Positions 2,478 through 45,342 of a DNA stretch of 64,000 nt are shown piece after piece. The stretch's first letter is position 1; the number at the start of each line of letters is the position of its first letter. The stretch is from assembly GCA_964537835.1 (NCBI GenBank), contig CAZICS010000001.1, positions 54,275 to 118,274 on the forward strand, given 5' to 3'. Source of the stretch: an uncultured archaeon (GTDB lineage: Archaea > Aenigmatarchaeota > Aenigmatarchaeia > CG10238-14 > SCSR01). The translations under genes were made by a program, and so were the position numbers. Below the pieces are notes generated by a model. The model was not told the DNA's origin. It made no database searches and was given only the letters and a program-made list of their open reading frames with translations.

Positions 2478-3560
2478 TCCTCTTTTCTATCGATTCTAAG
2501 TAAGTTTCTGCCATTCTGAATGCACCTGTCTTAATCTTATCCTTAGCTATGTTAAGCTCGATCTCTATATCATAAGTGTCGATCTTCTTTTTCTTCAACT
2601 CCTCTATTTTCTTCTCGAACTCCTCTATTTTCTTATTTAGTTTCACATATTGATTAATTTCATCGTCTGTTAGAGCGAATGGTGAGTGTAGCAATGGCCT
2701 GAAGCTAATGAACCATGGTTTTCCATAGTTATACTCTGGGTTCTGGAACAGTCCAGTTCCTATGGTAAGCTTAGTAACCTTAGAAGCATAGTCAGCACCA
2801 TACTTCGATTTAACCCTTCCTATATCTCCTTCATACTTGGTTCTTAGCTGGATTTCGTTTGCGATATTTGCTCTTATTGCTCCCTTGAAATCTAGTAAAA
2901 CTTGTGAAATTAAGAATAGACCAATTCCCCACTTTCTGAATTCTCTGCAAGCTCTTTCTATGGCTACATAACCTCCCTTCCCTCCATATTTTGGCAACAG
3001 CCTGTGAACCTCATCGTATACTAACAACAGCTTAATTTCTTTAGATTCAGGAGGTCTCATGTCGAATATGGCTTGAATGCTTCTTCTGACAAATCTGTCG
3101 AGCTGCTCTGGTTTGAGTCTGTTCATCACGAACACGGTGATTTCTCCAGGTCTCATGTACTTCTTAATATCTATTGGCATATCTGGGTCCTCAACCAGTA
3201 CTATGTTAGTCTTGAATCCTCTTGCATCAGTTGGTTTCAATCCAAACTTTGGATAGAGGTCAAGCATAGCCTTGAGTCTGCATGGTTTCATGAAACCAGT
3301 CCATTGAGCAGTTGGGTCAAATACTATTACAGGAATCTTTCTCTTTAGCAGTTCTTCTGCACAAACCATTGCAGAGACAGTTTTACCAGATCCAGTACCA
3401 CCCGCAGCTATAGAATGCATTATTAGTTGAGACAAGTCAAGGTAAGCTTTAACATTAGTTTCAGCTATTTTTCCAACCTCTATTGAATTGGGCCCAGGCT
3501 GAGGCAATTTCTTAAATTCTACAGGAGCAATATACCTTGCTTTAGCAGCTTTAGCAGCTC
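2458..3560 (-). other. Cytoplasmic HerA/FtsK-superfamily (DUF87/AAA_10-like) P-loop ATPase domain at the C-terminus of the giant protein.
   Basis: Walker A IAAGGTGSGKT is encoded at about 3381..3419. A D-P-x-x-x-W motif (VIVFDPTAQWTG) follows it. Walker B LLLVYDEVHRLLP is encoded at about 3007..3033. The domain lies right after TM2 and ends in a K/E-rich coiled-coil tail (KLNKKIEEFEKKIEELKKKK). Confidence 0.65.
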
Positions 3561-15500: not shown

Positions 15501-18500
15501 GGTAAGGAACCCAGCAAGTTCCTTTAGTAGGTGTACCAGGGGTTCCTGTTATGGTATAACTTCCTACTTTCTCCCAAGTTATTCCATCATCCTTGCTTAT
15601 GTATAAATTACAAGTTATTGTATCTCCTTCTTGGTCATAGATATCGATCGTAAAGTTAAAGTAGCTTGACCATCCTTTATACTCATCAAAGCTTAATTCT
15701 TCCCAGTCACCTAATACATAATTATAAACATAAACGCTAACATTCTCGCTTGTAGCGTTCACATTCTCTAGCCAGAACCAATTGTTATAGAGTGAAGAAT
15801 TAAAGTTGTAGTACTCCTTGCTTGCATTCAACCTAATACTCCAATATCCTTCTTTCTTAGCAGTAGAATCCCAAGTACAATTATACCATCCATCATACTC
15901 ATTATAAGCTGGAGTACAACCCTCCCAATTACCCAAAGGACTTCTTAACTCAATACTAACGCTAGCATTAGCTATTAAACCTTCATTCAAACAATCACTA
16001 GTAGTATTAAACCTAATCAAAATCTGATCAGTAACATTGAATACAGAATTATAAACAGGTACCAACAAATTATTCTTCAATTGGCCACGAATGGTTATCG
16101 ATTGAACTGTGTATCCGCTGATTGCACTAGAAGTATAACATTCATCACCCACATCCATTCTCCAATTTTGTATACCTACTGAGTAACTGCAATTTGGATT
16201 GAAATTATAGCTTAGATAACCTGAACTATCAGTAGTTAAAGCGATAGGCGGACCATAGTTCGCATTATCATAGGTTATTCTAATTGTACCATCAACTCCA
16301 CTTCCAACATATTCTCCTCTATCCCTATCATAAACTTGGGCTTGCAGTAAAACTGTTTCATCTTCTCTGTCAACTTCGCTTGGAGTTGTTGTTGCATAAA
16401 GAACGACATCATCTTTAATTATTTGTTGTTGTTGAGTTGTTGAAACTGTGTAATTCCAATAGTCTGTTGCGGTAACATTGAAAATTCTAGTTCCCATATC
16501 AGAGCAAGTGAATGTATTCTTGTAAGTGATGGTTTTAGTAATCTTACAATCAGGAGCAGAACAAATGCTTGAGTTTAACAATTTCCAGCCATTTGTAGTA
16601 TTACTCCATAAGCTAACGTTAAGTTTTTCAAAACTAAATGTTCCTTGATCTTCATCATACAGATCTATATCGAATATCCAAGTTTCTCCCCAGCCATAAG
16701 GATTAACAGAACTTCCAAAAGAATCTTGGGTTGTTATAGTTAAAGCACTTATAGTTGGTTGAGTAACCAAAACAAATGCATTCTCTTTAAGCAACACATC
16801 TGAACTATTGTAATAAGTCTTAGAAGCATTTATGGTAGCGTTATAATATCCTAAAGTCCAGGTTGAAGGATCGAAGGAATAAGTTACATAACCGCTCGCA
16901 TTGGTAAAGGCTTGAGCCGAATGAGTAGTTGCACCCTGTTTGGCTTTAAGGTCAACTAAAGCTGATGCTACTCCACCACAATCATCGTAAACATAACCTA
17001 GATAATCTACAGTATCTATACCCTTCCTATAGCTTTCACCATTTGGTTTGATTAAGCTAACTTCCAACGGTGTTGTTATCAAGGTTAAGTTCCATGCTGG
17101 GTTTGCGGGAGTGCTCCAAGTTGGCTTATAGCAGCTTTGTCCAAAGAAGACCTTCCATTTTTGAGGTCCTATATCATACAAACATCTATCTGAAGATGGG
17201 AAGTTATCAGTAATATATCCATTTGGTTCTATCGTATTTAGTTCTAAATCTTTCCTATAATTACTTCCATCATAAGTAACCCAGAATTGACCTAAATCAT
17301 TGTAAGCAACAGGGTTACCCGTATCTAAATCTTGAATTTGTACTTTCAGCGGAACCCTTTCACCATTGGTAACATTACTCCTATTAAGGATTGCATTATT
17401 CCCGAAAATCAAACTTATGCTTATGTCATCCCTTTCCAAACTAAAGCTTCCTACGGAAGATTCAGCATAATCCTTCTGAGAGCTAGCTGGAGTAACAGTC
17501 GAATAATCATCAGTACCATTAAAGAAGAATTCATGCGTAGCGTTAGTAAGTAAATCATCGCATACAAATGATGTAGTGAATTCTATTATTGCACTTTCAA
17601 CACCAGCAGCTTTGCTTTTTCCGGTAATCGGTGGTTTCACGCTCCAGCTTCCACCTCCAGGTCTCTCGTAGAACCATACTTGAACTTGATCTAAGTCTTC
17701 ATCCGTAACATTAACTCTGAAAGTCCAAGTCTCCCCCCATCCACCTATATTCCCTCCTTGTTCTGACTCGACGCTTGTTGATATTAATTGAATTGTTGGT
17801 AAAGTTTCTATCCAGAATGCATTTGTTTCTGTATAATCTACCAAATTATAGAATTGCTTCTCAGCATAAACTCTAATATCATAATACCGAGGCGACTTTC
17901 CGCTTGAATTGAAGGTTGTATTGTAATAGCCTAAGCTTTCTTGAACATGTTGCAAGTAGAAGATATCGTTAGTGTAAGTACTCTTAACTGAAATATTTAG
18001 GTAGTCTGGGTCGATTAAATTGTTACAATCCTCGCTTATGTTAAACCTTATGGAAACATTTTCTCCACGATAAAATTCTTCTGCATTCAATGGTTGAATT
18101 ACTTGAGTTGACAAGCTTCCTTTAATAGTTAGATTCCATGTGTCAGAGTATACGTCAAAATAACATGTTTGACCTTCTATAAAGGTTGTCCAGTTTTGAT
18201 ACCCAACTTGATAAGTACAATCTGGAGAGAAATCATAAGCTGCATAGCCTAAGCTCGTATTAACTTCAGCTGCTGTCAAATAATTACTTCCATCGTAAGT
18301 TATGTTGAACTTAACTGGTGTATTATCTGCAACCGCACTTCCTTTATCCTGGTCATACACATAAACCTTTAGGGTTAAAGTTCCAGAATTTCTATTAACT
18401 TCTTTCCCATCTCCGCTTACAATACTTATTTGTAAGGTATCTTTGGTTATGTTTGGTCCTTGTGAAGTTTCGGTATTAACTGTATTATACCCATCATCTA

Positions 18501-21500
18501 AAACAAAATAGTAATAATTATCAGTTCCTATGTCAGAGCAGGTAAAGTTAATTAGCCATGAACATAGACCATGGCCTCCGGTTATTGTAATCGGGGTTTG
18601 AGATTCAAAATAGCTACCTCCATCTGTCGAAATGTAAAGGGTACAAGTGACATCATCGTTGTCAGGATCATCGATTGAAATCGAATAGTTATAAGTTGTG
18701 CCCCACCCTCCTTCATTTGGAGAAACAGGTATTATCGTGTAAGTGGGTGGAGCATTTTGTAAATAGAACCAGTTGTCATACCAAGTTGAGTTTTTATGGT
18801 AATAGTTTCTAGTTGCATTCATCCTTATATCCCAATATCCTGGTGTCTTTAGAGTAGAATCCCAAGTACAGTTGTAATAACCATTTCCTAAATCTGTAAC
18901 AGGATAGCATTCTTCAATAACATCCAAAGGAGATCTCAGATTTATGTTAACTGTAGTCTCATTTAACAAACCTTCTTGGGAGCAATCTGAATAAACACTT
19001 CCATTTATCGGAATGAGAGTTGTTGTCTGGAAGGTTGAGTCATATTCTGGATAAGTAAGGTTGACTTTAAGTTGTCCATAAATGGTAAAGAGAACAGAAT
19101 CACTTTCTGCATCTTTGTAACAGGATTCTCCTATGGTTGCGATTCTCCAATATTGGGATCCTACAGTAAAGCTACAATTTGGGTCAAAGTAAAATCTAAC
19201 TTTGGAGTCTGCTTCAGTATAGTTAGTAAGCCAGATTAAGTATTCACTTCCGTTCCAAGTAACCTTAAGTTTGGTTTCGACACCAGAACCAACTGAAGTA
19301 TCCCTATCCAAATCGATAAGTGTTGCGACGAACTTAGCTTTATCAGTAAACTCCCTATCAACTTCGCTATCGGACAAAGCTGGTTCAGCAATTATCTGGA
19401 CATCGTCTTTTGCGATAGTAATTGTATCAGAAGTATTGTAACTATATCCATAAAAGTCTGTTGCTGTCAAATTCCATTCTCTTGTTCCTACATCTTGACA
19501 TGCAAAATCATCTTCTTGGATAAAAGTATAGCTGCACGGACTTGCTGTGCAAATCGTTGAATTCAATAATTTCCATCCAGAAGCCAAGTTAACCCATAAA
19601 CTAACATTTACTTCATCTTCTCTAGGAATAATCGCTAAATCATCATCTGTTAGAGTAAAACTAAATTGCCAGGTTTCTCCCCATCCTCCAGTTGTTGAAC
19701 CTTCTTCTGAAACAGCTGAGTAAGAGGTTATTTGTGGTTTTGTAACTAAAACAAAAGCATTCTCTTCTGTCCAAACAGAACTTGAATTGTAGTAAATTTT
19801 GCTTCCGTTGAAAGTAACATTCCAATAACCTAGATAGCTATTAGGCCATCCTGCTGTGTCAGTAGCAAGGATTGTGCAGGAATAATACCCATTCCCTTCA
19901 TCTGTTACAGGAGTGCATTCTATGTCTGTAGTTCCTTTGACTATGTGAAATTCTCCATTTCCATTCGGGATCAATCCACAATCATCCTCTAACCAACCCC
20001 TGAGCAGAATGTCATCTTCTCCTCTAACAAAGGATGTTCCTCCTGTAGGTTCTGAAACATAAGCTTCTAAAGCTTGAGTTATAATTGTAAAGGAGTAATT
20101 TGTTGAATTAACATCTTTATACCAATCATTCCCTACAGTCCCAACTTTCCATTTCTGGGGACCTACTTGATAGCTACAGTCTGGATAGAACTGATAGCTA
20201 ACATTTCCCAATTCGTTACCAGTTCCTGTTGTAAAGTAGCTAGGTGGGGTTGGATGAGCAACAAAATTAGTGTTATTCGTAGTAATGTAAAATCTAACCT
20301 TAGCTCCTCCTACAGCAGCGTTTTTATCCGTATCTATAACTTTAACCTTGAAGGTAACGTTTTGTAAAGGTTCTCCTAAAGAAGCACTTCTGTTTACAAC
20401 ACTATTATTCCCTTCCAATAGTTGGATTGCTATATCATCTTTCTCTATCGTAAATGTAACTATTGAAGTATTGGCAACATTACCATCATCATCACTTACG
20501 TTAAAGAAGAGTTCCCAATCTCCTATATAGCTTCCCGTCGCCCATGTTTTTGAAAATTGGACTTTCACATTGGTTCCGCTTACACTAGAATTACACCCAT
20601 GCAAAATCCAAGCAGTATCACCAACTCTTCTGTAGTAAGAGCAAACCGTTAGTGTATCATAGTCATAATCTGTGGCATTAACCACGAACCACCAATTCTC
20701 ACCCCAACCTCCTAAATTATTGGTCCCCTCATTAATTTCTTGCTCGCTTATCGCATCTTCTCCAACTAACAAAGGAATAGTTTCAACCCAGAAAGCTTGG
20801 TATTTTGTTGTTGAATTATCATTATAATCATCTTTCTGCAAGAAGGAGGTTACATCATACCATTGAGTTGGCAGGGAAGAAGTATTAAACGTACAACTGT
20901 AGTAGCCAGGCTCTTCGAAGTTTATAGGTTCGCAAACAAATTCTTCCCCTGTTTGTTGGGATTTGTAAGTGAAATTCATTTTAGAAAAGCCGGTTAAATT
21001 CACAGAGCAATCATCGTAAGTGTGAATTCTTATGGTTATATTATCTCCTCTCAAATATTTTTCGCTGCTTGGCTGAAGAATATCATTTAAAATACTTCCA
21101 ACTACATTCACCGCAAACTCACTACTATTAACATCTTGGTAACAAGCATCTGTAATTCCTGCTTTCCAGTATTGTTGTCCAACTGAATAACTGCAATTTG
21201 GATTGAAATAGTAGCTTGAATTTCCCTGAGAATCTGTTTGGTTTAATAAGTCAAACTGATAGTTAAGATTATCGTGAGTTACCCAGAAGCTAACATTAAT
21301 GTTTTGGGCGTATGCATTTTTTTCAACATCGAATACATTAACTCCTAGCCTTATTGTGTTTCCTAATTCTACATCACTCCTATTAACATAACTGTTGTTT
21401 CCTTCTATCAAGCTTATTCTTGCTAAGGATTCTCTTAGTTCTGGAAGTTGAATTGGTGTTGTGTTATAGTAATTAGAAGGCTCACCATTTTTAATTTCCC

Positions 21501-24500
21501 ACTTGAAGCTATTGATTCCTATGTCAGAACAGGTAAAGGATTGATAAATTACAGAGCAAGTTCCTTTAGTAGGAACTCCTGGAGATCCTGTAAGGATATC
21601 TGAGCCTGCTAGTTCCCATTCGTTTGTAGAGTTTCTTTTTATGTAAAGGTTACAAGTAATTGTATCTCCTTCTGGGTCGTAGATGTCAATAGTATAATTG
21701 AATTTGGATGACCAACCTGTTGGTTGAGTAACTACTTGCCATTGGTTGGTAGAATAGTTGTAAGCGTAAACAGTCGCATTCTCAGCTGTTGAGTTAAGAT
21801 TCTCTAGCCAGAACCATTTTTGATATAGGGTTGTGTTGGAGTTGTAGTCTGTCCTTGAAGAAGTAATTCTTATAGAATAGTAACCTTCATCCTTTCCAGT
21901 AGAATCCCAAGTACAATTGTACCAACCATCTCCCTCATTGTTAATTGCACCACAACCGCTTTCTTGTGAATATGGATCAATTAAAGCAACCTCTTGAATG
22001 GTAGAATCATTTATCAGACCTTCAACTTCACAATCAGTTGAAACATTAAACCTTATCAAGATTTGGTCTGTGACATTGAAAACTGAATTGTAAATGGGTA
22101 ATTCTAAGTTATTCTTGAGCTGACCAATAACTAGATAATTCTGCAAGGAATATTCTGGGGGTTGTAGAGATTCATCTTTGTAGCATGCATCATTAACTAT
22201 TTCAACATACCAGTACTGAGTTCCAGTTTGATATGTACAGTTGGGATCGAAATCATAAGCTAAGTAACCGTTCGAATCGGTCTGAACCTGATGACCTGAA
22301 TCATAGATTAGAGGTGATGCTTGGTAAGAGAAGTAGTAAGTACCAACTACACCAGCCTCCACTGGCGATTCGTGATCTGTATCATTCACAAGTACTTTGA
22401 AGGTTCCATATGTTGCTCCTTCTCTATTAATCGAGATACCAGAACCTTGAATTACTACAAACTGAATGTCATCTTTTTCTAAGGTGATATTAGGTGGAAA
22501 AACTTCTTTGACCAAGTTGTGAGAATCTTCTGCTCTAATTTTAAGGTAAAGTATAGGTCCATTAAGATAATCTTCACAAGAAAATCTTTCAAAAAATCTT
22601 ATTTCCCTGAAGGAAGTACAATCTGTGCAAAGTTGAGAATCAACATAATACCAAGTTTGATTGTCATAAGATTTCCATAAGCTTATGTTTACCGTATCTT
22701 TAGGATCATAATCTCTAAAACTCATGTTTATACTAAAATTATAACCCCATCCCTCTATTCTCGGGGTTACATTTGCATCGTAAATTTCTGGTCTGTACCA
22801 TAACTCAAAAGCATTAATTCTTGTTACGTTAATTGGATAGTAATAGGGTTTTGTAGCGTTTGCACTTAGATTATAAAATCCTGGAGAAGCACCAACCGTT
22901 GAATAAGTATAAGTATAGCTTCCGTTTCCTAAATCATTAGCTTGTGCATATTCTGGTAAAAGATAAGAAGAACCTTGCCAAGCTTTGAAGCTTACAGAAG
23001 CTCCACTTAAATAGCCATAATAAGCCAAACATTCATCAAAAGCTTCTGTTTTAGCAAGCACATCTTCACCGATACCATAAGCTTCTCCCTCTGGTTTTGA
23101 AATTGTAAGGTTTAGTTGGGTCCAAATATTTACAAACTGGAAGCTTGTTTGATTAGCAGCATAATACCTATCACTTTCGTCAACACCAGCAAACCATTTC
23201 TGCTTCCCTGGGTAATAAGTACAATCTGGATTAAAGGTAAAGTTCGCTATATTATTAGAAATTCCAACAGTCCCAGCAGATATATAATTATTTCCATCGG
23301 TAGTCACATAAAACCTTGCTGTAACTCCGCTTATAGTTGAAGAAGGATCTGTAGTATCAACAACTCTTACAGCTAAGTAAGTGACATTGTTCCTTCTATC
23401 AACATCTGTTTCATTACCTGCAACGTACTGAATTTCTAGGGTTCTTTTGGTTACGTTGAAAGTTAGAATTGGGGTTTCATTATAGTTTCCTAATTTATCC
23501 GTAACCCTTATCTTCCATTCATACTTACCTATTTCTGTGGCTAGGAAATATTCGTTAAATTGAGCTAGGTAATTAACAGGATCTGTAACATTAAAACTAT
23601 CTCTCAGAGTCCAAAGAGTCTCACCTAAAGGTCTTATGTAGAAGCTTACATTAACCAAATCATCGTCGTCGCTTACATAAGCTTTGAACGTTATTGTCTG
23701 TCCCCAAACTTGATCATGTGGAGTAACACTTGGATTTTCAACTCTAGGCCAAACTTCGACAAAAAATCTATTAGAAAATAAAGTAGAATTGAAATTGTAA
23801 TAATTCCTTGAAGAATTCATCCTTACAGAATAATATCCTCCTACAGCATTCGTAAGGTTTATTGAGCAATTGTAGTAGTTATTTCCTAAAGGAGATGCCT
23901 CACAAGACTTAGAGTAAGATTCATGAGCTATTGTAAAGTTAACTTGAGCGTCTGATATGCCTAATTCACATTCGTCACTTACATTCCCCTCTATACTTAC
24001 ATTCTCATTAGGATAGTAAATCTCATTTCCAGTGGGATAGGTTAACAAATTCCTTAACCAACCAATAATCGTTAAAGTATAATTTGTTGAGTTTGTATCC
24101 TTATAACATGTGTTATCAACAACACCTACCTTCCAGTATTGTGGGCCAGCTGAATAAGAGCAGTTTGAATTGAAATAGTAGCTAGAAGTTGCATCGCTTT
24201 GAGTATAATTGAGAGTCCCTGAATCAAAGTTTTGAGTATCATAAGTTATCCAGAATCGAGTCTTAACATTAGCGGGAACTAAAGTTTTATTATCTGTATC
24301 ATTGACTAAAACTTTAAGGAGAATTATATCTCCTCTATTTATAGTGCTACCATTGCCTTGTAGATGTATGATTTCAACATCATCTTTATCCAAACTAAAT
24401 GCTATCCCTGCTCTATCTGTAGCGTTATGGGCATCGGTTGCATTAAACTTAAAGTAATAGGTAGGCATATCGCTACAACTAAATCCTTTATACCAGAAAG

Positions 24501-27500
24501 TTAGCTCAGTTTTTTGTCCACAATCATGGCAAATTTGCGAATCTATGAATTGCCAGGTTTGGTTATCAGGAGATAACCAGAAGCTCACGTTTACATTTTC
24601 TCCATTTAAATCACTTACATTAACTTTAAAGGTAAAATTCTCTCCCCATCCCCAGTCTTCTTCGGGTAAAACAGTTTCGTCCTCTAGAACAGGAGGTACC
24701 CATTGCTGGATTATCCTAAAGGCGTAAGGTTTAGTTTGTGAATTATCATCATAATAACTAGCATTCGAAGCAAAAGTTGTTAGGTTATACCAACCCTCAG
24801 GAGCTTCAGTAGCATTCCATTCACAAACATAAGTTCCATTGTTTAAGTTTATTGTTTCATTACAATAGAATTGGTTACCGAAAGCTATGCTCTTAATAGT
24901 GTAGTTAACGTTTGCTGAAGTTATATTGTGCAGAGAGCATTCATCAACCACATGAGTTGTTAAATTAATGTAGAGAAAGTTCAACCTTACAAATTCGTTT
25001 CCATCCGGATAAGTTATGTTAGGAGTGAGCAAACCCACTATCGAAACATTATACTCAGAAGAATTTACCGCTTTATAACATGAATCAACTGTTTTTATAT
25101 AAGCATACCATTCTTGCTTTCCAACCTCAAATCTACAATCTGGATTAAAGTAATATTTGACGTATCCACTTGAATTTGTTTTGTTCCAACTTTGCTCAGA
25201 GGTAGGGCCTGCATCAATAAAATCTGTTCCGTTAAACACAGCAAAATAGAGTTTTGGTGAGTCATAGGTAGTGCTATAAACAGCCGGGGCATTTCTATCT
25301 GTATCGTTTAAATACATAATAAATAGAGTCTGATCATCACCGTATCTTCTAACATAACTTTCATTTCCTTCTACATACAAAATTTCCAAATCATCTTTTT
25401 TGATGGTATGGTAACTCGAAGAAGTTTCTGAATAAGATTCAGGGACTCCTGGTTCTGAGGCATTAAACTTATACCACAAAACACTTCCTTGGTCTGCGCA
25501 GGTATAGGTTCTCGTAAAGTTTACCAACTTATTAGTTGGATTTGCTATATACCTACATTCAGTTATTGAATAAGGTCCTGTTTCACTGCTTGCTTCAAGT
25601 AAGCAAACCTCTACACTTTCATAATGGTCTACTATAACACTAAAATTATGTACTTCTCCCCAAGAACCATCATTAGGAAAGCTAAGCGAAGGAGCGATAA
25701 GTCTAATTGGGGTTACAAGGAAAAATGCATTATCAAAATAGTCATAACCTGAGTGATAGTCAGCTCTTTCGGCATAGATTTCAATTCTATACCAACCTGC
25801 TGGTTTGTTAGTTGAATCCCAACTGCAATTGTAATGAGTTCCATTGAAGGTTGCATAACCTGAAGAAGGACATCTGTACCATTCGTTAGTTCTAAGATTT
25901 GTTAGATTGAAGTATACCTTAGCATCCCCTACCAAATTATTACAATCGTCAGAAAGATTTCCTACTAGTTCTATTATTTCACCCTCTGTGAAATTCTTAG
26001 AGCCATCTGGGAAGACTACTTTAGGATTAAGATCTCCAACTATTTTTATTAACAAAGTTTCGCTCGAGGTATTATCAGCGTAACAACTATCCTGGCTTAC
26101 ATTAACTTCCCATGAGTATATTCCCACATTATAAGTACAATCTGGGTTGAAATCGATATAGTAATACTCAGCTGTTGAGTTAAGGCTTGAAGTTATTTCA
26201 TAGGTTGAAGAATTTTTCAAAATAAATCTAACTTTATTCGTGTCTATAACTGTTACGTTCTGATTTAAAAGAAAGTCTCTTATCTGAATGGCTAATCTTG
26301 CTGTATTATTTGGCTTCGTATCATTTCTATTTATTACCGAATCATTGCCTGCATAATGTTTAATTGAAATAGGTTCTCTTGTAACATTAAACGAAACGAT
26401 TAAGGATTGATTAGCGAATCCGGAAATATCGGTTGCATTAGACTTGAAATACCAATCTCCAACTTCGTTTAGAGTAGCATTACAAGTAAAGTTTCTTTGG
26501 TAGAATGCCTCGAAGTTATTACATTGAGAGCATTGTTGTGTATCCTCTAAATTCCAAACACCTAAATCTTTTCTTAACCAAAGGCTTATTGTTACTGTAT
26601 CGTTATCCTCATCAGTTACAAACACACTAAAGTTAAATGGTCTAATCCCCCAGGGCCCAGAGGGATAAGGTGAAACTGTCAGATTTTCTAGGTTTGGGGT
26701 ACTTGCCAAATAAAACGCACTTTCAACTTTTGCTAAACCACTCCAGTGCAAACTCTTGCTAGAATACATGGTGATATTGTACCAGCCTAAAGGAGCTGAA
26801 GCTGTTGGGAAGTTACAATGATATTCCTGTCCAACTACCGTCGCTGAGCAAGTGTACGTATAGTCGCCATTAGTTAGATTAAAGTAAACCTTATCAGCAT
26901 TAGTAACGTTATCTCCGCAATCATCTTGCACATACCCTTTGATTGTAATGCTTGAAATTAATTCCTTGCTGAAGTTCAAGTTTATCGGATAGATTATGTG
27001 ATTAGTTAACTCACCCATGAGAGTGAAGTTTATGGGTGAGGTGATATTATCCTTAACGCAAGTTGCTCCATCAGTTCCTCCTTTCCATTGGTGCAAGCCA
27101 AGATAGTACTTAGTTTTATCTGAACACCATTTTTCATTGGTGAAAGTCCTTACTAAATGACCAGAAGCATTGGTATACCAATAGTCAGCGACTCCCAAAT
27201 CTTCCCATTGATCAAAAGTATAGGCCGAAACATAGATTCTTCCTCTCGAACCTTCTGGAGCTATTTGTTGCGCATCCCTATCCCAAACATAGATTACAAA
27301 ATCTGTCGATTGAGACCTATTAACTACATCGTTGTTCATCGGATAAATCGTGCTTACATCTACATCATCTTTTTCAACCATATAAGTATCTCCATATTCT
27401 TCCTTAGTTCCGTCTGCATTGCTCGCGTTGAACTTAAACTCCCAAGTGGTTATGTTTGCGCAAGAATAGTCATAGCTGAAGTTTATTTGCTGCCAATTTA

Positions 27501-30500
27501 AGCAGTTTATGCAAATCATGCTATCTATAGGTTTCCATTCCTGCCCAACTACTCTATGCCATGCATAAACAGTAACATTCCTCCCAAACCTATCCCTTAC
27601 CCATACGCTAAAAGTAAAGTTCTCTCCCCATCCACCGCTTGAAGCTTCAACACCGTTTATGTACAAAGTTGTATTTTCTAGCAAAGGCGCATAAGTATAA
27701 ACTTTTGATTTAACGAACAATTCCTGAGTTTCGTTGAATACTTTGCCATAATTCCACCTGTATGCAAGTTTTGTTACAGAAACGTTAGCAAAAGGATTTG
27801 CTGTCGCGTCTGTATGACCAAATATTTTTATTTTTCTTGTCGCTAACTTAAACGAATCTTGAAGGTTTGGAATAATGCTCGCGTTTGCCCAAACGGTTTC
27901 TTCAGATGGTTCAAAAACATAATGTTGATGAATAGTTTGATATTCTCCGCTATCTTTAGCTATTTCTATACTCATTTCTCCTATTGTAACATTATATCCA
28001 GTGAAATGATGTAAGTGTTGAATGCCAAGCCATGTTAAACGTTCATAGGGCATGGAAGGATGCTGGAATGTGTGCATAACTTCAGTCGTGCAATTATGGT
28101 TAGAGCAGAGATATGAAACAGAATCTTCATAATAGCTTGAGCCAGTAGTGTTTTTAACCCCGAATGGTTCTAAAACTATCTTTCCTTCATAGCTACAATT
28201 CAAAGTAAAGTTGAGATACTCGCTTGATCTTGAGGGTAGCTCAGAAAGATTCCATTTAATTAATCTTTCAGTTTTGTTCCAATCGCCTGTAGTCCAAGTG
28301 ACATTACAATAACTAGGTATCGGTAGATAAATCGTCCAGTTAGTAGCGTTAACATCCCCTATGTTAGTAACTTTCAAGCTGAAGTTGTAGGTCATGTTTG
28401 GCTGGATGCTTCTAGGTTCCTCCCAGGGATAGGCCTCTCTCTGTTCTACTAGCAAGGAATATTCAAGATGGCTTTCGCTTGTATAGTTCGAAGTTTGAAG
28501 GTAGTGTCTCTTATACTCTTTTTGAATTCTTCCAGCATATTGGAGTTCCCAGTTCATATAACCTTCTGTGCTTGAAGAAGTTGGGGATTTCACTTGATAG
28601 CTTGCAACCCCATATTCGTTTACTCCTATATACCCAATAACCCAGGTTATAACATTATTCTCTAAGTCAACGCTTGCTGATACTAATTGAAGATTGCTTG
28701 ATAAAGTTGGGTTTGCTGGGGTCCACCCAGAGCTTATGTTCTCTTTCAGAGTTAGAAGCTCATTAGTAGCGGCACATCCTTTGTTGTGAATGATCAAAGC
28801 AGATTCAAAAACTTTATCTGGAGCTACATAGGTTGGAGTTTCCCTTATTATTTCTATAACTGGTTGAATAGCGTTTGATATGTTTATTTGCTTGATTTGG
28901 GTAAAGTTTAACTCTAAATCAGGATAGCTAGTGAATATACTAACATTGATACTAACATTTTCGATTGAAGATGAGGTGTTCAAGTTGAACTTGACGCTTA
29001 TTTCTTTTTCTCTATGATCATGGAAGTAGTAATAGCTTGGCTCATAACTCCATCCAGAAGGAACTTCTAAGCTAATGTTTATATCACTTTCTTCCTCTAG
29101 AGTTTTAATCACATCTACTATCACTTCTTCTGTCGTGTTTGGGCAAGTGTATTCGTTTACATAAACATAAGTCTTTGGTTTGAGGTAATCGAATTCTTCT
29201 ACTCGCTTATCTATCTCGCTTGTATTCAGTTTAAGTTCTGCTACCCAATAATAGACTTTTTCTTCAAACGTAGAAAGGTCGATATTGTAGAAGTAAGATT
29301 TGGTTATTCCGCTAGAAATTTCCAAAAATTGCTGAGTGCTTGAATAGAATACTTGCTCTCCATCTGTCAGATTTAAAGTTAAATTGCCTGAATAAGTTTC
29401 TGAGAATGGATTTGCTATTATAACAGTTAGATTAAACAAATTGCCATCTTCGCTAGACCATTGGATGTCAGAAATCTTCACCTTCCTTACAAAATATCTT
29501 TCTAAGGATATTTTGTCCACATACAAAGGTTTGTTACCTTCATTTTCTAAGAGAATTAAACACTTGCTCTCGCTACTCAACCCTATCTCATCGTTTAGAA
29601 AGTCAACTTTAGTTAGACTTAAATTCTCCCCAACTTCAAATTCTTCGAATCTTAACTTCCATTTGGTTCCATTCCAAATTTCTATTCTTGCTGTGGTACT
29701 ACCATTGGCTTCCCAGAATAATTTCAGTCTATTCAATCTTCCTATTCCACTAGTACAATTGAATTTAACCCGAAGCTTCTTCCCAGGCATCACCAAAACT
29801 TCTACCGTTGAATTATCTGCTGAAGTGCCTAGACTTACATCTTGGCTAGTAACTCTATCGGTTACATCAGTTTCATTACTTGCTTCGCTTACGTTTAACT
29901 CTTCATACTCATAGGCCTTTACTGTTGTTGAATTCCAATCTTCGTAATAGTTTATTGGTGGAATTTCATCGCTTGTATTGGCTGTTACGTTAAGCTTATA
30001 ATAAGGAGATTTTTGAGTTAAAGAAGTTACATTGATATCCCAATGAACTGGAACATATTTTGTCTCACCTAAGCCAACTTTTATCTTTCCAAGGTATTGG
30101 TTTTTGCTTGGATTGACATTCCAGTTTGGTGCAAGTAAGGTTACGTTTGTGCTTGTTGCATTTCTGTCTTTAATCCTTAAAGTAGCATTAAGGCCGAAAG
30201 GCTTGTACTGGAATACTTCCTGAGGAGCAAAAACTTGGGTAACATTAAATTCTGGGCAAGCGATATCAAGATAAACTGTATATTCGCTACTATAGCTTGA
30301 TTGATAGCAAGAGTCTGCATCGCTTACCTTAACCCTCCATTTTTGCCATCCTGGGTCATACTTACAGCTTCCATAGAATTGATAATTAAGGTAGCCAGAA
30401 GAATTCGTTTGAGCTTCGCTCGCTTCAGTGAGCCAAATGTTGGAGTTGTTTAAGGTAACTTCTACATTAACCTTTGCTGTTTCTGTTATCAATCCAGAAG

Positions 30501-33500
30501 AATCTGTATCGTTTAATGCTAGAATAAAAGTAGTTGGCTGCTCTTTTGTTACTGTATCACCATCTCCGCTTATTAGAGTGAAGCTAACATCATCTTTTTC
30601 TACAGTAAAACTATTATCATCGTTCACATAATCTCCTTCCGCAACGCTTGTTTCATAACTATTCCCTTCTGTATCCGTAGCATTGAACTTAAAGTACCAA
30701 ATGCCAATGTCAGAGCAAGAATAGCTTTCTGTCCAATAGACTATTGTCCCACTTGGATTCACTATTTGTTGTGGGGAACCAACTTGGTACCAAGGTCCTG
30801 TCAAGGAAGTTGATCTCCACAACCAAACTGTTACCGTATCTGAATCATCAGTTACATTTACAGTGAAGTTAAACGTTCTGCTCCATCCTTCGCTTCTCGG
30901 AGTTACGTTAGCTTGTTTAAGGGTTGGAATTACTTTAAGGTAGAAAGCATTTTCAAGTGTGTAACTATCGTTTATATGATAGCCTTTCTCTGCTACTATT
31001 GTAACATTATACCATCCTGCAGGTTTTCCTGAAGAATCCCAGGTGCAATTATAATATCCATTTCCTTCATCGTTCGCATACCCAGAAGAAGGACATCTCC
31101 ACCATCCGCTAGCATGAGTTAAGTTAAAGTATACGTTTGTTTGAGTAACATTTTTGAGGCAGTCATCTGTCAGGTTACCCCTTAGTCCAATTTGGTCTCC
31201 TCTTGTATAGTTAATGCTTCCGTCTGGTTGGGTAAGATAGACGCTTAGAGTTCCTATTACAGAAACTTTGAATTGCTCGCTAGTGTTATCGTACCATCCT
31301 TGGCTATTGGTTACGTTAACAACCCAGTCTTGCAAACCAGCTTCATAATTGCAACCCGGTTCAAATTGCAAGTAGTAATGAGTTGTGTTAACAGATTCTA
31401 ATTCTTCAATCCAACCAGAACCGTTCCAAATCCAGAAGTGCAGGTTTTCGGATGGGATAGAAGTTATATAACTCATTGCATCGAAGTCATAAACTCTAAC
31501 TGCTAATTCAACCCAGTTAGTGCCCTCTCTCATAACTTCTGAATTATTTCCTCCAGCAAGTTCTATTTTAATGCTATCCTTGGTTACTGTGTGGAACTGA
31601 ACAGAAGTTTCTGCTTGATTATCATGCTGGTCTGTAGCATTAAACTTGAAATACCAAGTTGTTATATTATCTTGAGTATACTCAACAGGAAAGATTACTT
31701 CCTGCTCTTGAACTGTATTGCTTACTTGAGTTTGATTAACGAGCACCCATTGCCAGCCTGTTTGAGAAGAGTTTAGCCAGAAGTAAACGGTTACCGTATC
31801 GTTATCTTCATCGCTCACGTTAACCTTGTAATAATAAGGTGAAGCTCCCCATCCACTCTTGCCAGTTGAGGAAATAACTGAAGGAGCTTCTAGGAGTGGA
31901 GTAGAGCTTAAGTAGAATTGAGTGGTATCAGATCCTGGATTGTAATAATTTTCTTCTGCATAGAATTTAACCTCATACCATCCAACTGGTTGAGAGCTAG
32001 AATCCCAAGTACAATTATACCATCCTAAACCTTCTTCTTGAGCAACACATTGGCTTACATTACCGCTTGCTAAATGGGTTAAATTAAAGTAAATAGTCGT
32101 TAATCCGGTAACATTCCTTGAGCAATCCTCAGTTACATTACCCCTCAATAAGATGGAATCTCCCTGAGTAAAGTTAGCTCCAATGGGTTGCTCTATCTTC
32201 GGAATCAAATCTGCATAAACCTTAACTGTTAAAGTAGCATATGGATAGCTTGAGTTATCCGTGTAATAAGGAGAATTGCTCACATTGACTCTCCATTTAT
32301 GCTCGCCAGCTGGATATTCGCAGCCTGGGTTGAAATCACGATAATAGTCTGTTGAATTAGCGGATTCTTCAGCTTCATTAGCTAGCCAATCACTTTCATT
32401 GTAGATGTAGAAAGTTATTTGATCTAAGGTTATGTTAGGTATTCCAGGTTGGGTTTCATTCAAAACATTCCTATCTAGCACCAAATCCCAAACTTTAGCG
32501 CTTAGCCTGATAAAACCAGAGCTTCTATTTACTGTAGAAGCATTATTACCAAAATTGCGAATTTCTATGGGTTCTTTAGTGATGTTGAAAGTATGCTGAA
32601 CTATCCAGCTTGATTCAGAATAAGTATTGTTAATATAACCGCTCAAAGAGCTTGCATTGAAGATAAATTTCCACTGACCTATGTTATTCCAAGTAAGGTT
32701 CTTCTCATGATAGAGTGAAGTTTTAGTCGGATAATTACCTTGCCATTGGTATGCTTGTACCCATCCATGAGTTTCATTCCATAACCAAAGATAAACAGTT
32801 GTGAAAGTATTATCAGGGTTGGTGACCTCTATAGTAAAGTTGAATGGAGACTTACCCCAAGGCTGATTTCCTTGAGGAAGTTTTAATGGATTATCCAATA
32901 AGATTTTGCTCCTCAAGAAGAAAACACTTTCATTGAAAGCATAACCATCCCAATATCCAGTTTTATTCGAGTAAATGCTAACATTGTACCAACCGTAAGG
33001 AAAGCTCGAGTTTGTTTGAATTTGACAAGTGCCTGTAATGTCAGCAGTGCAATTCTTCTCAAAATTGTCATGCCTTATGCTTATTATTATGGTCGAATCT
33101 ACTGTTCTATCATTACCACAATCGTCTGTTACTTTTGCTTTCAAGGTTATCATATCGCCACGAGTGAAGTTTTGACCTATTGGTTCAAGCAGCTCATTGT
33201 ACAAATCTCCTTTTAGGGTAAAGTTTAACACAGAAGTAACATTATCCTTAACGTAAGAATCTCCGCTAGTTCCACCATACCAGCTATGCAATCCTAAATA
33301 CCACTTATTTTCATCACTACACCAATAAACATTCTTATCAGCTCCTGTACCTCCACGCATAGTCCTGTTAATCCATCCATCGTTTGATGTTAGTAGAGGT
33401 GGGGAAGATTCATAGCTCCCATAAGTGAAAGCATCTAGCCATATCTTACCAAAGCTACCGGTTGGATAGGTTTTATTGTCTCTATCCCAAACTCTTACAG

Positions 33501-36500
33501 AAAATGTGGTAACCGCAGCAGACCTATTAACTATGGAATTGGGAGATGGTGTTATGTTATAAACGTTTACATCATCCTTCTCCACGCTATAATCCTTTCC
33601 ATCCAATTCAGAATTTCCGTCTGCATTACTTGCATTGAACTTGAAATGCCATGCTCCTATATCGCTTGGCAAGTAATCATAAGTAAAGTTATGCTCTTCC
33701 CATTGCAAGCAATCTATACAAGTCCAAGAATCGACTAAGCTATAAGTTCCTCCAGTCTTCTTATGCCATAGGTAAACAGTTACATTCCTCCCAAACCTAT
33801 CCCTTACTTTTACGCTAAAGTTAAACTCCTCTCCCCACCCTCCTACGCTTCTAGAAGAATCCCCATTTATATAAAGAGTAGCATTCTCAAGCAAAGGAGT
33901 ATAGGTATAAACTTTTACCTTAACAAACAACTCTTGACTTTCGTTAAACAACTTACCATAACTCCAAGTATAATTTATCTGGCTAATCGTAACATTTGCA
34001 AATTCAGACTGAATACCGTCAGCATATGCATGCAACTCCATTTTTCTTGCTTTTGAAACAAAGTTGATAGATGGATAATAAACGACGATAGCTTTGCCAT
34101 TGTAATTTGCTAGGCTATAGTTTTGCCAAGTATAAGCATAATTATCTGAATCGTCTAGCAAGTAAACGTAGCCTTCACCTATGGTTAAGTTTGATGAAGA
34201 GAAATTGTAGAGTATGGTTAGATTAATGTTTGAAATTTTTTCATAGGGCAAAGAAGGATCGTTAAATATATGCGTTACTTGGCTAGTGCAATCGCTTCCT
34301 GAGCAACTATAAGAAGTGCTATCGCTATAGGAGATTTCATTTCTTGTATCGTTTAATGCTTCTACTCTAAACAACTGTTTTCCAGTTTGAGAACAGTTCA
34401 AAGTAAAGTTCAAGTAAATGGAGCTCCTGCTTGCTAATCCAGAAATGTTCCATGCTATTGAATTTTTAGTAGCGTTTATTACGCCTCCATCATAAGCATT
34501 AATTATTTCGCAAGTCGATGGAATGAACAATTCGACGCTCCAATTACCGCTTGTTACATCCCCTATGTTAGTAACTTTCAAGCTGAAGTTGTAGGTCATG
34601 TTTGGCTGGATGCTTCTAGGTTCCTCCCAGGGATAGGTTTCTCTTTGAATGGCTATCAAATTAAACTCTAGATGAGATTCACCCGAATAATTTGCTGTAT
34701 AGAATTTATAGTTTTCAAATTCTCGTAATTGTTTATTACCATCATAAGTTAAGTTCCACCGAGCATAACCCTCTTCAGCGTTGCTAACAGGTGCTTTTAT
34801 CTGATAGGATAGAACAGCATATTTATTAATGCCAATACTTCCAAGTTGCCATGTTATTAGATTATTCTCTAGGTTGACGCTTGTTGAAACCAGCTGAATA
34901 TCTCCTTCTATTCCTGGGTTTGCCGGAGTCCACCCAGGCTTAATGTTTTCTTGTAAAGTCAAATTATTTACTGGAGCACATCCCTTGTTGTGAACTATTA
35001 GCTTGCTTTCAAAAACTTTGCTTGCTCCTATGTAGCGTGGAGTTTCTCTTATTACTTCAATAACTCCTTGGTTAGCATTAGTCAGGCTTATGTTTTGTTT
35101 TGTTGTAGCTTGCTTATGAGGTAATTGGTATACAATTGAAACATTTAGGTTAGCTGTTTCTTCTGAGCTAGAAGAGGTTAAATTAAATTTAGCTTCATAA
35201 GTTTTTTCTTCATCAGCATTTATTAAAATGTAGGCTGGAGAGTAACTCCATCCAGAAGGAACTTCTAAGCTAACATTATAAGTAACCTTATCTTGATAAG
35301 CATGAGGTATCAAAACTTTCAGGCTTTCGGTAGTTGAAGGACAAATGTATGGATTATATCTTGTCTCATAACTTACATTCTTCCTTACTATACTCTCTAT
35401 TAACTGGCTTGAATTTCCATCATAGAAAATATAAGCTTTTATGTAATAAGTTCCAGCAGACCAGCCACTAACATTTATGTTTTCGATAGCTTCGCTGGTT
35501 ATAGCTCCTTGTGCCAAAGAAACTGTTTTATGAGTGTAGTTTACCACATTGTTACTTTCATCTGTCAGATTAACCCAAAGGTCTGCGTTTATCGTCTGAG
35601 CCAGAGAATTGAAAATTTTTACAGTAACATTTAGGTAATTATCTGCTAAATCTAAACTATAAGTTTCACTTTCGCTTACAGAAGGAACTATATCAACAAC
35701 TTTTGCCTTTCTTTCAAGATACGCTTTCATGGTCGCAGAATTTATTTGCACCTCATTTTCTCCTAGGTTTTCTATTCTAAGCAAGCAATGTCCAGTTCCA
35801 TTCGGTGAAAGGAATTGTTTAATCAATCGAATATCCTCTGTCACATCCCCAGAAACTGGAAGATAGTTTACTATCTCAACAAATTGAGTTGAGTTATAAA
35901 TGTAAATTCTAACTTCACTTCCAGCACTTGAATTCATTCCCATTGTAAATGAAGTTAGTCTATAATCTGCAGCTAGGCAATTAAATGCTAAATCTTGATG
36001 CTCATCGGGCGAAACTGTTAAAGGTAATGAGCTGGATGGGCTTGCTTGATAGTATTCATAATTTTTAACAAAGAATGAAACAGAATCCTCTATTCCGAAT
36101 GAATTGTTAACTTTAATCGTTAGGTTAAATCTACCAGAAGTAGTTGCGTTTACAAGCCAGGTAACATCTTTTGTAGAACCTTGAGCAACACCTCCTAAGT
36201 ATTTAACTCTATTATCAACTTGCCATTCTGAGGGTGCAATCAATTCGGCATAGACTTCGCTCGAGTCTGCTACATAGCTTGTTATCGTTGCCTTGATAGT
36301 AAAGTTTTTGTATTGTAAGGTTTCGTTAGGATGATAATAAAATTCAATCGAAGGAGTTGCCTGACAGCCGGTTAAATCTAAAGTTATGGTGAAATTCTCG
36401 CTAATGTTGTAATTATAAGCAGGGTCATCGCTAGCTATATAAGCACGCCATTCTTGATTTCCATTAACATATTCACAAGTTGGTTGGAATTCTAAGGTTG

Positions 36501-39500
36501 CGTAGCCGGCAGAATCTGTGTAAGCATTTCCTATAACCTTTTTACCTTCAGGATAATTAGCATGCAATAATTCAAAGGTTACTTTTGCGCTTGGAGTTAA
36601 ATTATAAGTTTGTGCTATCAAGTCATAAACTTTAACAGATAGATTGACAGCTTGGCTTAAGCTTGCTAAAGAATTATTTCCTTGATCTCCGTATTCGATG
36701 CTTACATTATCTTTGGTTAAAGTAAAGCTGTCATAACCAGAGGTCGATTCTGTAGCTAACTCAAACTTAAAGAACCAAGTTCCTATATCCTGATAGGTGA
36801 AATTCTTGTACCAATAAATTTGTTTGTTCAGGCAATCAGGATATTTGCAAGTCACTGGAGTTTGATTAACACAATCGCTACATTCGGTAAAGCCTGTGGG
36901 CGAAGTTTTTGCTAGCAAGATCTTCACATCATTAGGATTAGTATCACCGCTTGATGCAATCACGCTGAAATTCCAATTCCTATATCCCCAGCCATGGGAA
37001 GTTGGAACAACCTGCGGATTTTCAAGCTTATAAATCGGATAAAGATAGAATAAACCATTTTCTCCATAATCAGCAGTTTGGTTTGGATAATGGTATTCCT
37101 TTTCTGCCATCATAGTTGTATTATACCAACCCATTGGTGTAGTTATGTTAGTCTCCCAGTCGCAAGTGAAAGCGTTTGAACCTACTTGCGAAACTGGTGT
37201 GCATTCAAAATCTTGAGTTGAATGATTTGCAAAATATCTTACATTCGCTGTTAACGCATCACCACAATCATCTGTAGTTGCACCCAAGAAGCTTATCACA
37301 TCCTCTTGCGTGTAATTAACGCTTCCATCAGGCTTAACAAAATCTAAGATTATATCTCCTTTTACAGTTAGATAGGTTGGGATGTAATCAGAAGAATCGT
37401 TCGAGAAATAGCAGTTAAGCATTGAATCATTAACAACAACTTTCCATTGCTGCTGACCAACTTGGAATTTGGGTGCACCTTCATAATCTCCGCTACAAGT
37501 AGGGTTAAAGTAAAGTTTTACATATCCATCTGAATCGGTCAAATTCTCAAAGTTTGAATCAGAATAATAAGTTGATCCATCGATAGTTACATAAAACTTG
37601 ACTGCAAAATTTGCCAGATAGCTTGAATTTTCATCTTTAACTCTAAATTCTAATAGGTCTACTTGATTTCCTCTTCTATTTGCGATCGAATTATTACCGT
37701 AAATGTATTCTAGGTAAACCTTTTCTTTAGTTATTTCAAACTGATGCTCTGCAGTTTCATTAACGTTTGAAGAATTATCTTCAATTCTAAACTTATACTT
37801 AGCAACTGGGGTTATATCTGAGCAGCTAAATCTTGCAGTAAAATCTATTCTTTTCCAATTTGAACAGGCTAAGCATTGAGTTTTATTGATTTCTTTCCAT
37901 CCAGATCCAGTGTCTACATACAAAGTAATGTTTAAATCATCGCCTTCTCCATCCATTACTTCAATTGAAAAGTTCCAAAGAGTTGCCCAGCCTGCTGAAG
38001 CACCTTCCGTTACTCCATTAACACTTTCATTCGCATGCTTTGGCGGCCAGTTTACGTTAACATAAACCGTGAAATTGTCAGAGCGGTTGTATGCATAGCA
38101 GCTTGAAAGTATAGTGTCTACATAGCCATACCATCTTCTAGTTCCTGTCGTGAAATCTTGGTCCGGAAGGAAGTAGAAGTAAACATGACCAGAAGAATTC
38201 GTTTTATTATTTCCCACATACTTTTCAGGACCCTCATAGCTTGTTGTTGTAACGTTAAACTTTATATAAAGGTCTTCGGTTATTTCTTCAGTTGGATAAT
38301 CTAGATCTTTTGCTTTTAAAATAAATTCTGCTGGTGTTAAAGGTGTTGCAGTAGTTTCATTTCCTGAAACATATTCAATAACTATACTATCTTTTGAAAT
38401 ACTGAACGCTTGAGGAGTAGTTTCTCTTGCATTCCCCTCCGTATCTGTAACATTAAACTTGAAGTTGCGCGAAGGATTAGCAAGATCTGAGCATGTATAA
38501 TTCTTTGTCCACCATAGAATTGTTCCATCACAATTTGTACATTGCTTTGGCTGACCTATTTGAACCCAATTTCCTGAGCCAGCTGGAACTTCTTCCCAAA
38601 GATAGACTGTATCCGTATCTCCCGCATTATCAGTAACATTTATAGTAAAGTTTCTCTCTATACCCCATCCACCAGATGAAGGTGTTACAGTTGGATTATT
38701 AAGAACTGGAGCAAACTTAAGATAGAATGCATTTTCCTTAAAGTCGTAACCATCCCAGTGTTTTGATTTATTAGAAGTCATGGTAACATTGTACCATCCT
38801 GTAGGTGCTCCAGAAGGTAAGGTTATTTCCTTGTAATAAGCCCCCTGTTCAGCTGAATAGAAAACTTGGGTTGAGTAAGTATAAGTGCCGTGGGTAAGAT
38901 TAAAGTAAACAGTAGCATCAGTTATAGTATTTCCACAATCATCGGTTACTGTTCCTTTTAATGGTATAGAGGAATCTTGGGTATAATTGGTTGAACCATC
39001 AGGAAGTAGGATTTGATTAGTTAAAGAACCCTTGAGGAAGAAATCCATCTCACTAGTTGCATTATCTTCCCAGCATACATCATCTTTAACTCCCATTTGC
39101 CACTTGTGGGTTCCTAAATAGTACTTGCTCGTATCACTACACCAGTCATAATGGCTAAATTCTTGCACAAAATATCCTGTAGAGTTAGTGGAAACAGGCC
39201 ATTGGCCAATTTGATTATAAGAATAAATGGACATGTTAAATTTACCGGTAGCTCCATCAGCAGGTTGGTTTAAAGTTGTGTCTTGGACATGAAGTATGAA
39301 TTGAGTTTTTGAAGCACTCCTGTTAATTGTTGCATCGGCATTGGGTGTAATCAGTGTTATAGCATCCTTATTTTTCTCTAAAGTAATTGTCATTATGGGA
39401 TAATCCTCTGGCTCAAAATTCCATGTCTGATTTCTCGTGCATCCACCTCCATTACAATCGGTTGAGTCATCTGTAGCATTAAAGAACCATTCCCATACAT

Positions 39501-45168: not shown

Positions 45169-45342
45169 TCAAAAACACTTTGTACGCTAGCGTACAACAG
45201 ATCTGTATAGATCTTAATAAAGAAAATGTTTGTCGACGGTGATAAACCTAAGCTTTAACAAAAATTTCGAAAGTTCCGACACTTCGAAGGTTAAAAAAAT
45301 TGTCGAAAGTTACTTTAAAATACCAAAAAGTTCAAAATTATT
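45169..45342. promoter_or_regulatory. Divergent intergenic promoter region between the giant gene (minus) and the wHTH regulator gene (plus). It has TATA-like boxes on both strands and palindromic candidate operators.
   Basis: Plus strand: tttaaaata at 45315..45323 lies about 20-28 bp upstream of ATG 45343, implying a leaderless mRNA. Minus strand: ctttattaag-like A/T box near 45212..45222, about 45 bp upstream of ATG 45168. Palindromes lie between that box and the start codon. Confidence 0.5.
45181..45206. promoter_or_regulatory. Perfect 16-bp palindrome tgtacgctagcgtaca (45181..45196) immediately followed by a perfect 10-bp palindrome acagatctgt (45197..45206). Candidate operator 13-38 bp upstream of the giant-gene start.
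   Basis: Direct reading: both are exact reverse-complement palindromes. They are GC-containing in an AT-rich intergenic region and lie between the putative TATA box and the ATG of the giant gene. Confidence 0.5.

Follow-up and report, generated by a model that had tools for sequence, protein, structure and literature searches.

The window analysed here is a stretch of 64,000 nucleotides (nt; 64 kb) of contig CAZICS010000001.1. It contains one giant open reading frame (ORF), the product of which appears to be a surface protein of a Candidatus Aenigmatarchaeota (DPANN) archaeon, tiny and of symbiotic type, anchored in the membrane at both of its ends. Two related units, each composed of a 'head' and a series of modules, lie one behind the other within this ORF, and the two heads share an identical patch of 82 nt; the origin of the units and of the patch is the subject of this analysis. 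The features concerned are listed below, with positions in the window and, for the protein, in amino acids (aa); L numbers designate loci from other assemblies.

2458..45168, minus strand: giant ORF of 14,236 codons, one open frame in the window
34003..36216, minus strand: Head A, aa ~2985-3722; A-type clade, orthologous to L004 and to head 1 of L005
27793..30111, minus strand: Head B, aa ~5020-5792; B-type clade, orthologous to L001 and to head 2 of L005
30112..34002, minus strand: modules of unit A, namely M5 (33070-34002), M6 (32074-33027), M7 (31114-32013) and M8 (30112-31047)
23923..27792, minus strand: modules of unit B, namely M9 (26869-27792), M10 (25897-26817), M11 (24889-25827) and M12 (23923-24825)
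34556..34637, minus strand: 82-nt patch (putative conversion tract), Head A copy, aa 3511-3538, peptide (T)YPWEEPRSIQPNMTYNFSLKVTNIGDV
28352..28433, minus strand: 82-nt patch (putative conversion tract), Head B copy, aa 5579-5606

Based on a profile hidden Markov model (HMM) derived from the protein itself, the giant ORF contains ~30 copies of a ~310-aa module. The order along the protein is M1-M4, Head A, M5-M8, Head B, M9-M12 and an unbroken series M13-M26, plus partial modules; the modules M13-M26 fall into three classes which recur with a period of three modules (~1000 aa). Self-comparison of the ORF by tiles gives dominant offsets of ~330, ~1000 and ~2040-2070 aa. The head (~740-770 aa) is present only twice in the protein. 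In the self dot-plot of the giant protein, which an earlier preliminary description of this DNA had proposed, two ~750-aa stretches match only each other, each head matching the other head and no module. Both units consist of one head and four modules of ~310 aa, the first of which is truncated N-terminally and starts at HMM position 31, so that 'a distinct head plus about 3.5 modules, twice', as first described, is accurate.

The identities between the two units were taken from a gapped codon alignment; an ungapped comparison at fixed offset showed almost no similarity because of insertions and deletions. The units as a whole are 39% identical in aa and 51% in nt, and the overall identity of 60-70% initially estimated was too high. 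The values for the single parts are:

Head N-terminal third, A vs B: 26% aa / 44% nt
Head core, A vs B: 48% aa / 56% nt
M5-M9: 52-53% aa / 58% nt
M6-M10: 37-41% aa / 51% nt
M7-M11: 27-32% aa / 50% nt
M8-M12: 31-32% aa / 47% nt

Any module of the giant protein compared with any other gives 26.7 +/- 4.7% aa identity, and only M5-M9 (99th percentile) and M6-M10 (97th) stand above this background, M7-M11 being found at the 64th percentile. Position-by-position reciprocal best similarity does not extend along the full 6.2-kb unit, M7-M11 and M8-M12 being at background, and blastn similarity at the 6204-nt offset is confined to 27361-29075 vs 33568-35273. A module tree which includes the orthologues of L005 pairs head with head, A1 with B1 and A2 with B2 (A3 being an extra relative), while A4 is placed with B3 and U2, and B4 with the downstream module C2. 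These results support a paralogy at fixed offset (+2068 aa) which covers the head, module 1 and module 2, i.e. ~4.1 kb and not 6.2 kb, followed by a register shift of one module. The layout of a ~6.2-kb duplicated unit is thereby retained from the preliminary description, and its strict collinearity is limited to ~4.1 kb.

Concerning the patch, the identity of 28352..28433 and 34556..34637 that had been noted is exact: the two copies have 0 mismatches, lie 6204 nt apart (2068 codons, in frame), and form the longest exact direct repeat of the 64-kb window, the next being of 31, 28 and 26 nt. The edges are sharp, the flanks falling to ~45-55% nt identity within a codon or two. Two smaller exact islands are present in the alignment of the units:

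35243..35273, minus strand: 31-nt island in Head A (aa 3299-3309, SLEVPSGWSY), identical to 29045..29075 in Head B; P 6e-5 to 4e-3, marginal
33782..33807, minus strand: 26-nt island in M5 (aa 3788-3796, VRDRFGRNV), identical to 27575..27600 in M9

Beyond these runs of 82, 31 and 26 nt, all exact runs in the codon alignment of the units are of 14 nt or less. Simulations with the local identity (n=5000) gave a longest run of 14 nt on average and 30 nt at maximum. Outside the islands, identical residues are encoded by the same codon at a rate of 0.47, as compared with 0.44 expected from codon usage; the synonymous match rate is about at chance level, and therefore the synonymous sites are saturated and the duplication is old. 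Inside the patch, the probability that all 24-26 degenerate codons are identical is 1.3e-9 based on codon usage and 8e-8 based on the empirical synonymous match rate. An 82-nt run is far beyond chance, which is excluded as its explanation.

The age of the units was further assessed in relatives. With a profile search, 13 partial proteins were recovered, most of them belonging to Aenigmarchaeota metagenome-assembled genomes (MAGs); the protein database contains only short partial homologues (up to 831 aa) and no near-identical second assembly of the heads. The sole homologous fragment in the scan of genome contigs is L001 (QMVD01000013.1, 'Nanoarchaeota' MAG B33_G15, 50% GC), a 13-kb contig which is one open frame throughout and is collinear with the giant gene from Head B onward, and the metagenome scan added 23 homologous loci. 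In a tree of 31 heads, Head A of the window (WIN_A) forms clade A with L004 and head 1 of L005, and Head B (WIN_B) forms clade B with L001 and head 2 of L005; Head B is 54% identical to L001 and 45% to Head A. A- and B-type heads are present across four lineages. The locus L005 (Ga0190367_1000111, 35% GC) has the same layout of four modules, head, four modules and head, then modules, with the heads spaced by 6141-6156 nt. Each of the modules U1-U4, A1-A4 and B1-B4 has a 1:1 positional orthologue in L005 at 51-79% identity, with the exception of the divergent U1 (34%), and the same-codon rate of L005 at identical residues is 0.53 vs 0.47 expected. Because clades A and B each hold orthologues from other genomes and the modules of L005 are positionally orthologous, the duplication predates these lineages; it is ancient, older than the split from at least three related lineages.

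The patch departs from this pattern. To its left and to its right, WIN_A is nearest to the A-types (0.63-0.65 and 0.58-0.65 aa identity, respectively) and WIN_B to the B-types. Inside it, WIN_A equals WIN_B (1.00 aa), and the two heads of L005 are likewise 0.96 identical to each other. A sliding quartet of the window and L005 gives 0.97-0.98 between paralogues and 0.70 between orthologues in the patch, as compared with 0.38-0.55 and 0.5-0.75, respectively, in the flanks; when this quartet is moved along the whole unit, the patch is the only place in the window's unit where the paralogues are closer than the orthologues. L005 possesses an exact island of its own, 111 nt long (10661-10771 = 16817-16927, P 1.4e-13), which overlaps the same motif, is 72% identical in nt to the window patch and has its boundaries shifted 51 nt upstream. 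An additional tract of ~400 nt where paralogues exceed orthologues is found in module 1 of L005. The VRDRFGRNV island shows the same behaviour: both paralogues of the window have AGG..GGG AGG, and both of L005 have AGA..GGA AGA in a 26-nt island at the same relative position.

Similar tracts are found in further members of the family. A second, independent ancient paralogue pair, shared by L011 and L019, contains conversion tracts in the same zone, where paralogues exceed orthologues over ~700 nt (starting from the SLKVxNIGD strand) and ~380 nt (at the junction of head and module 1). The heads of L006 are 100% identical in protein, with 2997 nt exact (1800-4796 = 8613-11609) within a block of 3.65 kb at 93% (1358-5013 vs 8201-11823), beyond which the similarity drops to background; this block reflects either conversion or duplication of very recent date, or else a fault in the assembly of that contig. 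The combined locus L002+L003 (ENA ERZ1286166 contig_3049, 27943-56525) has a tandem unit of 8.14 kb (merged coordinates 2118-10353 vs 10256-18489), the identity of which changes along its length from 70% to 80%, 85% and 99.2-99.8%, then 92%, with 5.4 kb at more than 99%. On the same contig the homologous giant gene is split by frameshifts into many same-strand ORFs and has at least three heads; the frameshifts probably come from long-read assembly. The transposase genes Y2_Tnp and DDE_Tnp_1 are located just downstream of it. Exact islands also occur elsewhere, one of 152 nt in L016 (19772-19923 = 20732-20883, offset 960, adjacent modules) and one of 109 nt in L020 (3650-3758 = 7286-7394, offset 3636); therefore, conversion islands are not confined to heads. 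Concerted evolution between head units is therefore family-wide and recurrent, and in this genome the 82-nt island is the latest and smallest mark that it has left. A 50-mer of the patch had no match in viral contigs or in any of the loci retrieved.

Across the family, no block of the head is more conserved than the patch peptide, (T/A)YPWEEPRSIQPNMTYNFSLKVTNIGDV over the two heads, and no invariant block is longer. The domain matches of the heads begin at the patch: DUF11 scores 23.1 and 23.9 bits in the two heads (cut-off 24.6) and CARDB 19.7 bits in Head A (cut-off 22.7). No match in the giant protein reaches the Pfam gathering threshold for either domain, so that the heads, first described as containing CARDB, do have DUF11/CARDB-like matches, at the patch and below threshold. 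Several homologues carry precomputed PF01345 (DUF11) matches. In an AlphaFold model of the head core, built from a 13-sequence alignment (predicted local distance difference test, pLDDT, 87.9; predicted template modelling score, pTM, 0.71), the core is a string of beta-sandwiches (immunoglobulin-like, Ig-like, domains) and the patch forms an inter-domain linker and, in the domain that follows, the first strand (model residues 253-263) with its turn. According to the beta-sandwich fold of the model and the homologues with PF01345, the patch domain is CARDB/DUF11-like, and the patch encodes the typical first strand and turn (xSLKVTNxGD) of CARDB (PF07705) and DUF11 (PF01345). Foldseek matches to the head model have a low TM-score and are to generic Ig-like stalks (integrin alpha legs, PrgB, antigen I/II and the MG domains of alpha2-macroglobulin); this fold search assigns no specific function to the head.

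We consider it very probable that the ORF carries, in the extracellular stalk of its product, two tandem copies of an ancient higher-order unit and that a recent intragenic gene conversion of short tract took place at the 82-nt patch. An old duplication with a recent conversion patch was one of the two explanations offered in the preliminary description, and it agrees with the saturated synonymous sites, the A and B clades, the layout of L005 and the grouping of the patch tree by genome. The 82-nt island would be the footprint of a recent, short and non-reciprocal homologous exchange between the two heads. Strong conservation at the protein level may leave the patch as the most similar paralogous DNA, where recombination would nucleate, and each conversion would reset perfect identity and favour the next one, in the manner of a self-reinforcing island. 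That other genomes show independent conversions at this site or next to it would be explained in this way, the conserved motif being the likeliest start of pairing. RecA/RadA-type recombination can proceed from a few tens of bases of perfect identity, and archaea are reported to undergo short-patch conversion. Concerning direction, the tract of L005 reaches A-like type-diagnostic residues (LEF..QAIQR), which suggests that its donor was probably the A-type head (A to B). For the window, we lean only weakly to B as the possible donor.

A crossover between the in-frame 82-mers, 6204 nt apart, would delete or add exactly one unit of 2068 aa, and the perfect repeat is a plausible substrate for unequal crossing-over. 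This fits the variation in the numbers of heads and modules at family level: the relatives, compared for copy number as the preliminary description had suggested, have one to three heads per locus and three, four, five or six modules between heads. The 'hotspot for length variation' expected there is borne out to this extent, at family level only.

Several points weigh against the conversion reading. The sole independent assembly of the same strain (Logan SRR7051320, L027, 99.995% identical over 18,892 nt) stops at 37546 and does not reach the region. Taken singly, the 31-nt and the 26-nt island have only marginal significance, and L005 is the only other genome with both A- and B-type heads. 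The window patch is 79% identical in nt to the B-type L001 and 70-72% to the A-type L004. The flanks have little homology: when A and B types are compared across species, exact runs do not exceed ~10 nt. To start there, recombination would have required a formerly more similar patch or else very short homology, and the self-reinforcing step is therefore conjectural.

Another reading gives the site an active role. It says that the linker and first-strand motif of the head is a maintained recombination site and not a passive one, kept either by selected identity (for example a shared partner-binding or strand-pairing interface whose two copies have to co-evolve) or as a switch for the addition and removal of a 2,068-aa unit. 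Independent conversions recur at this site in the window and in L005, and in the adjacent zone in L011 and L019, which is compatible with both versions; we nevertheless regard this alternative as unlikely. If the switch version were true, populations of these host-dependent archaea would use the perfect repeat to tune how long their surface stalk is.

An artefact of assembly or polishing, by which copied or mis-joined paralogous reads would have created the 82-nt identity or the two-unit structure, was the other explanation first offered. The source is indeed a metagenome-assembled contig, and a Logan assembly of this strain, made with k=31, is interrupted within the module array (position 37546 of the window). 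(This break lies in M3, and no exact repeat of the gene of at least 20 nt maps there; coverage or strain variation may be its cause.) An artefact is nonetheless very improbable: L005, from another species and an independent assembly, has the same two-head layout and a different island of its own at the same site, and the A and B types are kept on both sides of the patch, so no swap through the shared 82-mer has occurred. To go from ~70% to 100% over 82 nt would take ~25 base changes made in concert, something that assemblers and error-correctors do not do, and collapse is implausible as the other exact repeats are of 31 nt or less and the modules are ~27% identical in aa.

We find it equally hard to credit that a functional element at the nucleotide level (a structured RNA, a regulatory or recombinase site, or the template/variable repeat (TR/VR) pair of a diversity-generating retroelement, DGR) is held identical by selection. 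In favour of such an element, every synonymous site of the patch is identical and an island recurs at the same position in L005. However, in the patch only 12 of the 23 codons for identical residues match between Head A and L001, showing that synonymous codons vary freely, and the patches of the window and L005 are only 72% identical in nt. The boundaries of the tract differ by species (82 vs 111 nt, shifted 51 nt upstream) and by lineage, and the predicted RNA fold is unremarkable (z = +1.18; equalled or surpassed by 178 of 200 shuffles). The TR/VR pair was rejected separately, the 0 mismatches leaving no adenine-specific pattern; Pfam scans of the giant ORF and of neighbouring ORFs of at least 150 aa found no reverse-transcriptase domain.

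A recent 6.2-kb duplication with very fast divergence everywhere except in a patch kept by purifying selection and codon bias, for which one might invoke the patch peptide being the most conserved head block across the family, is the least credible of the alternatives and is refuted by the orthologue phylogeny: the A- and B-type heads are each nearer to orthologues elsewhere than to each other, every module of either unit has its positional orthologue in L005, and selection at the protein level cannot keep 24-26 degenerate codons identical (P 1e-9 to 1e-7).

The giant ORF and its surroundings have several further features. Proteins encoded next to the giant gene have cluster-mates, at 90% identity or above, that are annotated as Candidatus Aenigmatarchaeota MAGs. 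In the giant protein, the ectodomain of ~13,700 aa is made of Ig-like modules and contains 654 N-x-S/T sequons (N-glycosylation) and 225 Cys residues; the other elements are:

45010-45141, minus strand: predicted cytoplasmic winged helix (wHTH) at the N-terminus, aa 10-53
44821-44895, minus strand: first transmembrane segment (TM1), anchor, aa 92-116
3565-3663, minus strand: second transmembrane segment (TM2), aa ~13836-13868
~2461-3483, minus strand: C-terminal cytoplasmic P-loop ATPase, with Walker A motif GGTGSGKT and a DUF87/HerA match (1.5e-9)

In the N-terminal ectodomain, a Hint/intein-like stretch is found at 43969-44412 on the minus strand (aa ~253-400), ending ...VPNHVILVKEYGKGVWS. 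Its match to the Pfam family Intein_splicing (E 1.7e-4) is below threshold and its putative block A does not begin with Cys; the stretch may be an autoprocessing or intein-like domain. Within the module array, M21 and M15 (15106-16077 vs 21139-22116, minus strand) are 60% identical in aa and 67% in nt over ~1 kb at an offset of 6033 nt, as compared with the 27% background, and may represent another, older conversion or duplication. The 28-nt exact match 15864-15891 = 31998-32025 joins M21 and M6, 16 kb apart, at a conserved Cys/Trp-rich motif; it could be due to chance, given ~325 module pairs, or to micro-conversion. Downstream, an ORF of 646 aa (537-2477, minus strand) overlaps the stop codon of the giant gene by 20 nt and has low-complexity repeats at window positions 674-970; it has no Pfam match and no ATPase match. 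Between the start of the giant gene and the UbiA gene, the Logan assembly of the same strain has a gene call for a small divergent HTH_24 regulator of 131 aa (window ~45340-45740, plus strand, from L027 7798-8193), and the giant gene might be under its local control.

In this giant archaeal gene, the repeats form a genuine and ancient architecture, and so the assembled length is largely trustworthy. Giant surface-protein genes of DPANN archaea, like the adhesin genes of bacteria and eukaryotes, undergo concerted evolution together with gain and loss of units. For annotation, trees of paralogues based on the conserved DUF11-like strand will mislead. The 82 nt repeated at a spacing of 6204 nt provide a concrete, testable in-frame recombination substrate for variation in stalk length. 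The patch reveals no new mechanism: the mechanism is an ordinary one for repeat-rich surface-protein genes, and its recurrence at the same motif in separate archaeal lineages is the modestly interesting point.

Intragenic or ectopic conversion among the repeats of surface-protein genes and similar genes is known from the FLO adhesin paralogues of yeast (PMC3512402), the repeats of spider silk genes (PMC9779670) and bacterial antigen repeat systems (PMC4534519). The present gene resembles these systems in its tandem paralogous units within a surface-protein gene, in mosaic tracts where paralogues of one genome are closer than orthologues, and in a repeat number that varies by lineage. It differs from them in that the paralogues are ancient and otherwise saturated (39% aa identity), the tract is very short (82 nt) and situated on one conserved motif, and separate archaeal lineages show repeated conversion at this site or close to it; neither a dedicated variation system nor silent donor cassettes are in evidence here.

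With regard to the protein itself, the closest parallel in plan is offered by the SPEARE giant surface proteins of Nanohaloarchaeota, which have 8,880-9,409 aa (PMC10266531). The protein of 9,409 aa has been called the largest in cultivated archaea (PMC10266531), and the 14,236 aa of the present ORF exceed it. In plan, both are giant DPANN proteins in which a membrane anchor or signal at the N-terminus is followed by long Ig-like arrays and, after a transmembrane segment, by a C-terminal P-loop ATPase (HerA/VirB4/FtsK superfamily); the likeness described here is one of plan. The present ORF differs in its putative cytoplasmic N-terminal winged helix, its Hint-like stretch and its phylum (Aenigmatarchaeota, not Nanohaloarchaeota); also, the downstream gene at SPEARE loci encodes a second VirB4-like ATPase, whereas the downstream ORF here is without an ATPase match. 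Finally, the arrangement of the repeats recalls higher-order repeat arrays: a base module of ~330 aa is organised into super-periods of three modules (~1000 aa, M13-M26) and of a head plus four modules (2068 aa). Unlike the near-identical, satellite-like repeats of such arrays, the units described here are protein-coding, ancient and highly diverged.

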